From: Escherichia phage vB-Eco-KMB43
Sequence record: OR525698.1
Length of the DNA stretch: 64,000 nucleotides
Direction: 5' to 3' (one strand)
Shown: piece after piece, positions 19,447 to 23,194 of the stretch
How positions within the stretch are numbered: position 1 is the first letter of the stretch
Layout: each line of letters starts with the position of its first letter
The notes under the pieces: model-generated
Seen by the model: only the letters and a program-made list of their open reading frames with translations
Told to the model about the DNA's origin: nothing
Databases searched by the model: none
Translations under genes and position numbers: made by a program

Positions 19447-19941
19447 TTATTGGTCTACCTTCAAAACAACCGCCGACATTTTACCCGCCAGTCGTTTTGG
19501 ATTCTCTATAATCATTCGACAGCATAGACCGTGATACGGCTTGCCGTCTTCAATTAGGTCTACTGTCATCCCGATCCACATGTTACCGTCAGTAATTTCT
19601 AATCGATTAGGTCGGTCTTCCATTTTCAGGAAGTCGAAGATCTCCGGCAAACGAGTTTCTATCTTATTGAATAGTTCCATTGTCTTATGTTCATCGATAT
19701 GACGATCGGTTAGACGGTCGATCATATGCGGACTAAAGCGAATAAAAATATACTCACCATAACCATCATTCAAACACTTTTCTTTGATCTGCGCATTGGT
19801 TTTGCGCATTTCGGTTTCGAAGAATCTACGCAGCTTACTACGGCGAACATGTACGTTAATTGTTTCCATTTTATTATCCTTTCTTAAACAAATTGCGAAT
19901 CCAGTATACAAACGGGATTTCTTTAAACTTGAACTTGTCAA
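19447..19941 (-). CDS. hypothetical protein (probable CDS 19447..19869)
   Basis: Internal ATG at 19869 (METINVH) preceded by AGGA RBS. Confidence 0.5.
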   Translation of the reverse strand: MTSSSLKKSRLYTGFAICLRKDNKMETINVHVRRSKLRRFFETEMRKTNAQIKEKCLNDGYGEYIFIRFSPHMIDRLTDRHIDEHKTMELFNKIETRLPEIFDFLKMEDRPNRLEITDGNMWIGMTVDLIEDGKPYHGLCCRMIIENPKRLAGKMSAVVLKVDQ

Positions 19942-20269
19942 TAGTTAATTCTTTAGTAGCAAGATGAATACCATAAGCATCATGTGTAACTATATGCCAT
20001 TTTCTATAGTCCAAATGTGAACAACCGTCTGGATCTAGGTTAATAAGAGTTTCTCTCTCACTAGGATTATTTTTCCACAATTTTGTAATAGGATCGCACA
20101 TAATTCGACCTAGCGTACCATGAATAATCTCACAACGGTAAAGTTTTCCAGCAGTGAGATAGGCGCACCCGTCATAGTCGGTATAAACAAACACTTCTTT
20201 AACACTCATTTTAATACTCCTTTGTTGTTTCGATGGGGGTATATTACTACCCCCGATCATGTGTGTCAA
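19874..20269 (-). CDS. small hypothetical protein, GCSHL family (probable CDS 19874..20209)
   Basis: Track start lies in the promoter; ATG at 20209 with GGAGTATTAAA RBS; DPDGCSHLDYRKWHIV motif. Confidence 0.5.
   Translation of the reverse strand: MTHMIGGSNIPPSKQQRSIKMSVKEVFVYTDYDGCAYLTAGKLYRCEIIHGTLGRIMCDPITKLWKNNPSERETLINLDPDGCSHLDYRKWHIVTHDAYGIHLATKELTIDKFKFKEIPFVYWIRNLFKKG
20241..20269 (-). promoter_or_regulatory. early promoter (TTGACA -17- TAATAT) with GGGGGTA..TACCCCC inverted repeat
   Basis: tgtcaa at 20264-20269; inverted repeat 20235-20254. Confidence 0.6.
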
Positions 20270-20530
20270 CTACTTTTTCAAGATTTTTTTGATTGCATTC
20301 CAAAGACCTTTATTTCCAGGTTGTTTTGGTTCTTCGATCAGTGTCCATGTTCGACCGTCTAAGTGTGCACAATTTTTAAGACAAATAAAAATCTGGTGTC
20401 CCTTATCATCACGGATATAACCACTATTCGCAAATCTTTCATGTGGTGTATATTCATACAGTGTATTAGGTGTAATATACTTGCGGTTACTATAAGGTGT
20501 CATCACATACATCATGGTACTAACTCCCAA
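20270..20530 (-). CDS. small hypothetical protein, GCSHL family paralog
   Basis: CLKNCAHLDGRTWTLIEEP motif shared with neighbours. Confidence 0.5.
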   Translation of the reverse strand: MGVSTMMYVMTPYSNRKYITPNTLYEYTPHERFANSGYIRDDKGHQIFICLKNCAHLDGRTWTLIEEPKQPGNKGLWNAIKKILKK

Positions 20531-20706
20531 TTATCACCGCGAAGATGAGAACATCCACCATCAAGAAGGATCGTAATACGATAACCTATATCATCTTTGA
20601 TGTAACCGATTGTCGGTGGATTTTCGTAGTCTCGTGTCGGGGTAAAATCATACATCTTTCCTGGCGTAATATCTTGTCCTTTATTGCTATTGGTATAAAC
20701 TTTCAT
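20512..20706 (-). CDS. small hypothetical protein, GCSHL family paralog
   Basis: LLDGGCSHLRGDNWELVP motif. Confidence 0.5.
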   Translation of the reverse strand: MKVYTNSNKGQDITPGKMYDFTPTRDYENPPTIGYIKDDIGYRITILLDGGCSHLRGDNWELVP

Positions 20707-20727: not shown

Positions 20728-21426
20728 CTAACCACGGGTATAGTGTTCCAGAACAACTGTCAGATGAATATATTCTAATAAATCTTTCCAAAAGTCAACA
20801 TCTGGTTCTTCCGGCATACCGTTTTTCTTTGCCTCTTCACGAGCGAGTTTAACACGCTCGTAGAGATCTTTCAATTCTTCCCGCACATTATCAAAGGTTC
20901 TTTCTCCTAACTTACACGCTAAAATAGAAGAACGTCGCGCGAGCGGGAATTGTAGATCACCTGTCTGATAGATTTCAAGTAGCTGATAACCAACACGCAG
21001 AGCATGAGAAAGATCTTTCCAGTTACTGAAATACTTTTCAGATTTGGCTACCTGCTTTTTGAGATAGCCAGACAAACCCCACATACCAACATGATAGAAT
21101 TTATCTCGATGTGTTCGGATGTATTCCCATTCTCTGGAGGATTCAATCAACATGTTACTAGGAGCGTGCACCATGTCAATAGCGCCGATATCGCCTTTAC
21201 ATGCCAGATTGATAAACCGTTTTAGACTGAACATATTAACATCAATATCGTCTTTGGTGTTCTTGATACCTTGACCGCTAGTGCTTTGGTCATAGTGTTC
21301 TTTCATCGATCCTAAGATAATTTCTTTCGCAGTCGGAACAAAGATACCACGATAATCTTTATCGGAATTTTCAGTATCAAGGCCGTATAAGTGAGATCCG
21401 AAGACCATTTTAACCATTGTATGCAT
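20728..21426 (-). CDS. nucleotidyltransferase-fold protein (pol-beta/MNT-like GS...D.D motif) with C-terminal helical domain
   Basis: MVFGSHLYGLDTENSDKDYRGIFV fits the GS-x(9-13)-D-x-[DE] minimal nucleotidyltransferase signature. Confidence 0.55.
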   Translation of the reverse strand: MHTMVKMVFGSHLYGLDTENSDKDYRGIFVPTAKEIILGSMKEHYDQSTSGQGIKNTKDDIDVNMFSLKRFINLACKGDIGAIDMVHAPSNMLIESSREWEYIRTHRDKFYHVGMWGLSGYLKKQVAKSEKYFSNWKDLSHALRVGYQLLEIYQTGDLQFPLARRSSILACKLGERTFDNVREELKDLYERVKLAREEAKKNGMPEEPDVDFWKDLLEYIHLTVVLEHYTRG

Positions 21427-21470
21427 AATTAAACCCTCAGTTGATTAAGAGATTGCATCATATCATCATA

Positions 21471-21504
21471 AAACGAAAAAGCCAACCCTTTTCGGATTGG
21501 CTTG
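21471..21504 (-). terminator. rho-independent terminator after the grcA-like gene
   Basis: GCCAATCC-gaaaa-GGGTTGGC hairpin followed by a T-run on the minus strand. Confidence 0.65.
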
Positions 21505-21512
21505 ATGAAAAA

Positions 21513-21929
21513 TTAGAGAGATTCGGTAAAGGTACGAGCGATAACATCACGTTGCTGGTCTGGAGTCAGACTATTGAAGCGCACTGCGTAACCAGAAACG
21601 CGAATTGTAAGCTGCGGGTACTTCTCAGGATGTTCAACAGCGTCCAGCAACATTTCTCGTAACAATACGTTAACATTCAAATGCTGACCACCTTCGACAA
21701 CCGGAGCACCATTATCTACAATCACCGGACGGAAGCTAGTTGTGTGCAGTGCCAGCGAATCGACGTCTTCTGCGGTGATCACATGGTCTTCTGCGAAAGT
21801 TTTACTAACAATTACTTTAGCGCCGATCAGTGCTTTCGGTTCGGATACCAGAATCATAGGCGCGAAGTGTCCACCAATAATAGTACCTTTATGTTCACCT
21901 TTCATGATTTGAATTGCTTTAAATTCCAT
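21513..21929 (-). CDS. grcA: autonomous glycyl radical cofactor (GrcA/YfiD-like)
   Basis: C-terminal ~60 aa ([12 protein letters not shown]...[36 protein letters not shown]) near-identical to E. coli GrcA as recalled. Confidence 0.8.
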
Positions 21930-22618: not shown

Positions 22619-23194
22619 TTATTTTGGATCTGGGAAATTCAATAGAGCATATTCTCCATAAAATTTCCTAGCTGCATTATCATAAGCGATTGCAGCTTCG
22701 ATTTCTGTGTCATATTGTCCAAGAACATGTCTTTGTAGGTTGACCATTATACTAGCTCTCCATTTCTTACGCAAATCCTTCCTGTTACACTTACTAACAC
22801 CCTTATACACACTAGAAAACTTTTTAGACTTCTTCTTTCTATTATGTTGATTTTGCGCGTCGGTTGCCTCCCTAAGATTTGGAGGATTGTTATTAGCAGG
22901 ATTACCGTCAATATGATCAATTAATCTAACTTGCGTCCCATGTTCTAGAAACCAAACAACCCTATGCACGAATAAATGAACTCTAGGAAGACCGTCATCT
23001 CTACTATGCCAAAATCGAAGATGACCATCTTTATTTGTTCTGACTTTAACTAAATCGCCGTGTTTATATCTACTCCCTAATGGTCGTCCTTTGATAGCTT
23101 TACTATCGACTCTATAATATAAGATACCCTCTATATGAGCATATCTAAGTTTTATCTCGTTTTGTAGGGATTCATCCCAATATTTAAAAGCCAT
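22619..23194 (-). CDS. free-standing HNH homing endonuclease with AP2-like domain
   Basis: HNH core IDHIDGNPANNNPPNLREATDAQNQHN and AP2-type YKGVS...W.A.I segment. Confidence 0.75.
   Translation of the reverse strand: MAFKYWDESLQNEIKLRYAHIEGILYYRVDSKAIKGRPLGSRYKHGDLVKVRTNKDGHLRFWHSRDDGLPRVHLFVHRVVWFLEHGTQVRLIDHIDGNPANNNPPNLREATDAQNQHNRKKKSKKFSSVYKGVSKCNRKDLRKKWRASIMVNLQRHVLGQYDTEIEAAIAYDNAARKFYGEYALLNFPDPK

Follow-up and report, generated by a model that had tools for sequence, protein, structure and literature searches.

The window analysed here, a stretch of 64,000 nucleotides from Escherichia phage vB-Eco-KMB43 (OR525698.1), contains a gene that is assigned by homology as the Krischvirus (RB49/JSE-type) orthologue of T4 nrdC.11 and as a member of the RlaP family of nucleotidyltransferases. 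The gene is already known, having been named and classified before; the only unusual trait of its product is the lack of a ~100-residue module that is found in nearly all other phage copies. By analogy with characterised bacterial relatives, it seems fairly probable that NrdC.11 is a non-templated enzyme that adds 1–2 nt to RNA 3′-OH ends in tRNA repair, together with phage Pnk and Rnl1.

20728..21426, minus strand: nrdC.11 orthologue, RlaP-family (PF10127) nucleotidyltransferase, 232 aa short form (open reading frame, Pfam, PHROG and AF2 model)

A GAGGG Shine-Dalgarno sequence was read 7 nt 5′ of the nrdC.11 ATG at 21426. The protein begins with MHTMVKMVFGSHLYGLDTENSDKDYRGIFV, and M1 was taken as the true start because homologues (T4 NrdC.11, MKTVVKSYFGSHLYG) show it so; the start at M7 given in the sequence-only reading was therefore set aside. 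The Pfam model PF10127 (RlaP) matched the window protein with E 3.4e-14 and 53.6 bits at a cut-off of 23 (curated gathering score), residues 7–191 being aligned with profile positions 24–198 of 249, and PHROG 388 ('nucleotidyltransferase') matched with E 2e-79; the family match is far above chance. The nucleotidyltransferase fold that had been proposed from the letters alone is thus borne out by Pfam, PHROG and a confident AlphaFold model. The subfamily, for which MNT/KNTase-like, CD-NTase-like and tRNA nucleotidyltransferase-like candidates had been named, is RlaP and not MNT-, CD-NTase- or tRNA nucleotidyltransferase-like. Assignment to a well-characterised family, which that reading had counted against itself, is largely what was found (RlaP/NrdC.11), the NTase fold itself being upheld by structure prediction. 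CD-NTase, CCA-adding and MNT assignments were rejected for lack of a profile match and for the wrong context. An NCBIfam search with the window protein gave no match, and a PADLOC search gave a chance-level match only (E 0.03). Relatives were present in 1619 phage records (tblastn) and amounted to 3575 cluster representatives at E<=0.001 in an exhaustive HMMER scan.

Over the surrounding 6 kb, the window shares 98% identity with Krischvirus genomes (e.g. RB49, JSE and G5211). The RB49 translation and the window protein are 100% identical, and the JSE protein (YP_002922172.1, annotated in RefSeq as 'nrdC.11, nucleotidyltransferase') is identical at 231/232 positions. A counterpart in T4, which the sequence-only reading did not recall, was found in T4 NrdC.11 (NP_049709.1, 336 aa), residues 1–328 of 336 being aligned with residues 1–222 of 232 of the window protein (BLASTP E 1e-50). 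T4 NrdC.11 and the PHROG 388 orthologues have their catalytic and helical-domain motifs in common with the window protein, and both genes lie in the early region and are transcribed leftward. The flanks differ: T4 nrdC.11 sits between nrdC.10 and mobD, whereas the copy in the window and in JSE sits between vs.6 and three small regB-proximal genes, so that the T4 synteny is absent here. A COG3541 nucleotidyltransferase domain has been recorded in most of six nrdC.11 orthologues (PMC1524935), and deletion of T4 nrdC.11 is viable on laboratory hosts (PMC9825161).

Comparison of a NrdC.11 alignment with an alignment of operon-encoded canonical RlaPs (hhalign) gave a probability of 92.6% and E 4.6e-7 over the NTase domain. 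The RlaP family was reportedly defined by Burroughs and Aravind in 2016. Canonical bacterial RlaPs (PfRlaP, PaRlaP) belong to the same Pfam family as the window protein and share with it an insert-free two-domain layout, the DxD...D triad and the helical-domain K/R pair, but only ~15–25% identity; they fall into SSN cluster 1a, against cluster 5, and the window gene, unlike theirs, is phage-encoded and lacks an operon ligase. The closest cellular relatives are bacterial NrdC.11-type long-form RlaPs (e.g. those of loci L020, L009 and L032), which form one subclade with the window protein in the tree and show 36–38% identity to it for three that were aligned; in the best tblastn segment, identity reaches 53%. 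These bacterial proteins carry an insert and are usually paired with a downstream canonical RlaP, whereas the window protein has no insert; a second (canonical) RlaP gene was searched for in the window and none was found.

The catalytic signature reported earlier (GS, ten residues, D-x-D) was recovered as G10-S11 followed, after ten residues, by D22-K23-D24, and it is conserved in homologues; with D62 as third acidic residue, the Pol-beta NTase signature (G[GS], DxD, third acidic residue) is present in the window protein.

21355..21399, minus strand: codons of G10-S11 ... D22-x-D24, first two parts of the NTase catalytic signature (alignments and model)
21241..21243, minus strand: codon of D62, candidate third carboxylate for metal binding, where strand 62–67 begins (alignments and model)
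20995..21018, minus strand: codons of W136-K137 ... H141 ... R144, conserved helical-domain motif (alignments)

Alignment of 36 NrdC.11-type sequences showed G10, S11, D22 and D24 to be invariant, as were D62, W136, H141, W213 and many more. A cross-subfamily alignment was made of the window protein, T4 NrdC.11, bacterial NrdC.11-type proteins, canonical RlaPs and Bacillales homologues; G10, G15, S21, D22, D24, D62, K137 and R144 were invariant across these RlaP types and S11 nearly so. An AlphaFold (AF2) model built with 36 homologues as input (pLDDT 92.4, pTM 0.88) comprises an N-terminal alpha/beta NTase domain from residue 1 to ~96, with strands 2–9, 24–30, 44–48 and 62–67, and a C-terminal helical domain from ~98 to the end, made up of a bundle of helices and, at the C-terminus, a long helix (210–230). 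G10-S11 and D22-x-D24 fall where strand 1 ends and strand 2 begins. The helical C-terminal domain proposed before was thus recovered, at ~135 residues, and the model marks the window protein as a Pol-beta-type nucleotidyltransferase with a helical C-domain. The best PDB structural matches (Foldseek, E 4e-5 to 5e-4) were two-domain nucleotidyltransferases, namely ANT(4′)/KNTase, Hailong HalB, the uncharacterised 3c18 and LinB, which share 10–14% identity with the window protein; they confirm the fold and do not point to function. PDB sequence searches with the window protein and with profiles A1 and A3 returned nothing relevant.

The substrate, described as unknown in the sequence-only reading, is partly known as a class, since RNA 3′-OH ends are used by two bacterial RlaPs (PMC12776372). 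In this December 2025 preprint two Pseudomonas enzymes (PfRlaP, PaRlaP), encoded between rtcB and rtcA, were characterised. They label RNA, while genomic or synthetic DNA and protein are not labelled and E. coli proteins are no substrates; 1–2 NMPs (or dNMPs) are added to the 3′-OH of RNA, 3′-phosphate ends are not used, and activity is best with Mn2+ or Co2+ (PMC12776372). With a cleaved-tRNA mimic, nucleotides are added preferentially to the 5′ half at its 3′ end rather than to the acceptor end, and aminoacylation was partly regained by a tRNA missing one anticodon-loop nucleotide; in total RNA, the labelled species also include full-length tRNA and ones of rRNA size, and there is little NTP specificity (PMC12776372). 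The PfRlaP crystal structure has an NTase domain and a helical domain, with the C-terminal helix packed back onto the NTase domain, and T4 NrdC.11 was put in the RlaP family (SSN cluster 5; the studied enzymes are in 1a) and called 'of unknown function' (PMC12776372). Earlier, a comparison of jumbo phages had led to the prediction that phage RlaPs put missing nucleotides back onto cleaved RNAs, which are then ligated (PMC7824862), and the idea of anti-RloC repair by NrdC.11 is likewise already in the literature.

On the model of these enzymes, D22, D24 and D62 in the N-terminal Pol-beta NTase domain of NrdC.11 would serve to bind an NTP and two divalent metal ions, probably Mn2+, and the helical C-domain (K137, R144) would close the cleft in which the 3′ end of the RNA lies. 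One or two NMPs would then be added to a 3′-OH RNA end without a template. NrdC.11 would act after PseT has stripped the 2′,3′-cyclic phosphate from a tRNA half, restoring the nucleotide that RloC or another 'nucleotide-excising' anticodon nuclease had removed, and RNA ligase 1 would then reseal a full-length anticodon loop. Such repair would naturally be directed at RloC-type damage, and plausibly counters nucleotide-excising anticodon nucleases. The proposal draws on family membership, catalytic conservation, the two-domain fold, bacterial repair neighbourhoods and the occurrence of Pnk and Rnl1 in JSE, all observed here, and takes its biochemistry from the Pseudomonas RlaPs in the literature, so that an activity of the window protein and a role in tRNA repair in vivo are extrapolated from them. 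As RlaP addition is not templated, 'repair' of this kind would be inefficient.

Bacterial gene neighbourhoods were analysed by scanning one genome per bacterial species, which yielded 147 confirmed relatives, and 80 loci were retained; ORFs were called, neighbours were clustered and recurrent clusters were identified with Pfam. RNA-repair gene(s) were present within 5 kb in 19/80 bacterial loci of the NrdC.11 subclade (a second, canonical RlaP at 12 loci, RtcB at 7, Ro60/TROVE at 6, Pnkp at 4, Hen1 at 4 and RtcA at 1). Because RNA-repair genes are rare in genomes, the enrichment near NrdC.11-type genes was judged strong, by inference and not from a computed background frequency. The remaining 61/80 loci had no RNA-repair neighbour within 5 kb, and their recurrent neighbours were miscellaneous housekeeping genes (Cu-oxidase_4, DUF92, Wzy_C, polysaccharide deacetylase). 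At 12 loci a canonical RlaP gene (254–278 aa, PF10127 up to E 6e-81) follows directly in the same orientation, with an overlap of a few bases, and both products keep the catalytic Asp triad. In the Nitrosospira locus the order is Ro60-RtcB-RtcA-NrdC.11-like-RlaP-Hen1. The pairing suggests a two-enzyme or heteromeric arrangement that is absent from phages.

L020:555-8158 (Nitrosospira), L009, L017, L022, L038, L044, L050, L052, L060, L063, L072 and L074: tandem NrdC.11-type and canonical RlaP loci
L033-L035, L041, L042, L053, L055, L058, L064, L070, L071, L075, L079 and L082: Bacillales loci of insert-less homologues

The Bacillales group consists of co-linear, insert-less homologues of ~250 aa (26–28% identity) in Bacillaceae chromosomes; they form the sister group of the NrdC.11 clade in the neighbour-joining tree, and RNA-repair genes were absent within 5 kb of their loci. 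Modest additional observations are the architecture without the insert and the bacterial tandem pairing of NrdC.11-type and canonical RlaP genes.

RlaP takes its name from a genomic association with RNA ligase or other RNA-repair genes. As to the phage, JSE carries pseT (polynucleotide kinase/phosphatase) and rnlA (RNA ligase 1), and guilt by association was taken from bacteria only, because the phage gene is not adjacent to either (~80 kb in JSE); a ligase or Pnk gene was not present near nrdC.11 in the window. In JSE, a DprA-like gene occupies the position of T4 rnlB (RNA ligase 2) after gene 24, and a second, short 'polynucleotide kinase' (158 aa) is annotated next to nrdB, besides pseT. 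The genes around nrdC.11 and these two JSE loci are as follows.

21513..21929, minus strand: vs.6 orthologue, GrcA/YfiD-like glycyl-radical 'spare part' protein (Gly_radical, E 1.5e-16)
21503..21479, minus strand: hairpin and T-run after the vs.6/GrcA-like gene (consensus scan only)
21485..21457, minus strand: sigma-70-like promoter TTGGCT-17-TATGAT with TG upstream, ahead of nrdC.11 (consensus scan only)
20512..20706, 20270..20530 and 19874..20209, minus strand: three tandem small paralogues of 64, 86 and 111 aa (PHROG 6261/15978)
19447..19869, same direction as nrdC.11: regB, three small genes away
L085:1423-2010 (JSE 101422-102009) and L003:9859-10335 (JSE 135858-136334): DprA-like and short kinase loci of JSE, in the order reported

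The GrcA-like gene and the three paralogues noted in the sequence-only reading are present, but its upstream and downstream are reversed: on the coding strand the vs.6/GrcA-like gene lies upstream of nrdC.11 and the three small paralogues lie downstream. Its description of the surroundings as an accessory island is weak, since vs.6 and nrdC.11 (the latter on a 2006 list) are both conserved T4-like ORFs with orthologues in 6/6 T4-like genomes compared (PMC1524935); the region is the usual T4-like early region rather than a special accessory island. A vs.6 homologue is also found in syntenic position in a divergent phage contig (L084). The three paralogues, located between nrdC.11 and regB, have a G-C-S/A-H-L motif in common and gave no Pfam match. 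In the gap between vs.6 and nrdC.11 (21427-21512) the hairpin/T-run overlaps the predicted promoter, both being consensus matches and not evidence of function. The gap holds no homing-endonuclease gene in the window, but one is present in JSE (L001:9442-9972) and in the divergent contig (L084:3951-4547); the terminator/promoter junction is here a polymorphic site of homing-endonuclease insertion. An HNH_3 + AP2-domain homing endonuclease (PHROG 99) is encoded at 22619-23194 (minus strand), between the vs.8-like gene and the endolysin gene.

The position of regB bears on an alternative use of the same chemistry, in which NrdC.11 tails RNA ends outside repair, either on transcripts (e.g. RegB products after end-healing by Pnk, for decay control) or at tRNA 3′ ends. 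The biochemistry would be the same as for repair, RlaPs being able to label full-length tRNA and rRNA-sized species with little NTP specificity, and Krischvirus nrdC.11 is only three small genes upstream of the co-directional regB. This proximity is Krischvirus-specific, however, T4 nrdC.11 having other flanks; bacterial relatives neighbour ligases and end-healing enzymes and not decay machinery, and RlaP favours the 3′ end of a cleaved anticodon over the acceptor end. Tailing was regarded as unlikely.

In the alignment with T4 NrdC.11, the window protein shows a 106-column gap, opposite which about 104 T4 residues fall. The segment that is missing, T4 residues ~131–240, consists of one helix, a beta-sheet and one long helix, and the corresponding junction lies at residues ~129–135 of the window protein, just upstream of the W136-K137 motif; the long-form architecture (300–350 aa, with a central alpha/beta insert) is absent from the window protein. 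Canonical RlaPs and the Pfam model are likewise without the insert and the window protein is co-linear with both, while the Pfam match of T4 NrdC.11 ends at the insert. When NrdC.11-type proteins were reduced to 148 representatives at 50% identity, the insert was absent in only 5/148 (the Krischvirus pair, P0143/P0230 and P0153). The junctions of these short forms differ from one another, and in a neighbour-joining tree the short forms nest separately among long forms. In 200 bootstrap replicates the short lineages were never grouped together or with the Bacillales short forms; the Krischvirus pair was recovered in 114/200 with a simple neighbour-joining and rooting procedure, so that node support is modest. 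In the simplest reading of this tree, which is indicative and not definitive, a single gain of the insert took place at the root of the NrdC.11 clade, followed by about three independent losses.

Loss of the module raises the alternative that the short form is a decaying remnant, inactivated by removal of ~100 aa and kept by linkage. The lost module has motifs that are near-invariant in long forms, KYG(V/I)KGS and YGERA, and T4 nrdC.11 is dispensable in the laboratory. A frameshifted allele also exists: in public metagenome data, the representative P0182 is a 94-aa allele, 97% identical to the window protein over the first ~70 residues and then out of frame, which is either a natural nrdC.11 knockout in some Krischvirus or an assembly error. 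The short form is nevertheless probably functional, as far as sequence and model indicate, because the conserved catalytic and cleft residues are all intact, the AlphaFold model is confident across the insert junction, and length and synteny are kept in the divergent contig L084, the protein of which is 57% identical, of the same length and in the same locus order (endolysin, vs.8-like, Gly_radical, HNH, RlaP). The insert-free architecture also equals that of canonical, active-type RlaPs, similar losses recur in other lineages, and copies with at least 99% identity occur in 57 phage records; decay is a very unlikely explanation. A frameshifted allele together with dispensability in T4 is expected for a conditionally useful counter-defence gene.

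Two further alternatives arise from the fold. HalB, a Hailong defence enzyme, produces oligodeoxyadenylate, and NrdC.11 might make or mimic such a nucleotide signal (HalB-like short oligonucleotides) or disturb nucleotide-based immune signalling, an interference that the sequence-only reading had also suggested. HalB and KNTase/ANT(4′)-type enzymes share the overall fold of the window protein, a Pol-beta NTase domain with a helical (HEPN-like) domain, but have no detectable sequence relationship to it, and their acceptors or products (oligo-dA signal, antibiotics) and gene contexts differ. The likeness to HalB is at the level of fold only (13–14% identity); HalB was not detected by sequence with protein or family profiles, PADLOC gave no match of note, and neither a sequence relationship nor an adjacent HalA-like effector gene was found for the window protein. 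No channel or effector gene lies beside any bacterial relative examined, and characterised RlaPs require an RNA 3′-OH primer and stop after 1–2 additions, which leaves signalling extremely improbable, whether as synthesis or as interference. It is just as improbable that NrdC.11 nucleotidylylates a small molecule or a protein, as do KNTase/ANT(4′), LinB, DrrA and the MNT antitoxins, which AMPylate HEPN toxins: matches to these are of the generic two-domain KNTase-like fold (TM-scores 0.28–0.46, 10–14% identity), RlaPs do not act on E. coli proteins, and in place of a small MNT and a separate HEPN toxin with a conserved Rx4-6H motif the window protein is a fused two-domain protein without an adjacent toxin gene, its sole Rx4H string (R107-H112) having a non-conserved His that is Thr in most homologues. 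Each of these alternatives (tailing, a HalB-like signal, small-molecule or protein nucleotidylylation, and decay) has little support.

RNA end repair by NrdC.11 with Pnk and Rnl1 is the best-supported reading, and a function outside repair, in RegB-linked RNA tailing or in interference with oligonucleotide signalling, is a more remote possibility. Since the window protein is without the insert of its subclade, its substrate range may differ from that of T4 NrdC.11. More tentatively, and with some doubt, the Krischvirus protein may represent a natural minimal version of NrdC.11, whose choice of RNA ends would have changed with the loss of the insert; the missing phage counter-measure against RloC-type nucleases may be this protein or NrdC.11 as a group. 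As a variant that naturally has no insert, the short Krischvirus form is suited to probing what the NrdC.11-specific module contributes. If NrdC.11 replaces nucleotides excised by RloC, it would be a third enzyme in the classic T4 Pnk/Rnl1 tRNA-repair pathway; this would be the first case of a virus replacing lost nucleotides of host tRNA rather than merely resealing a nick, and it would explain how T4-like phages could survive a host defence that has been proposed to be 'repair-proof'.
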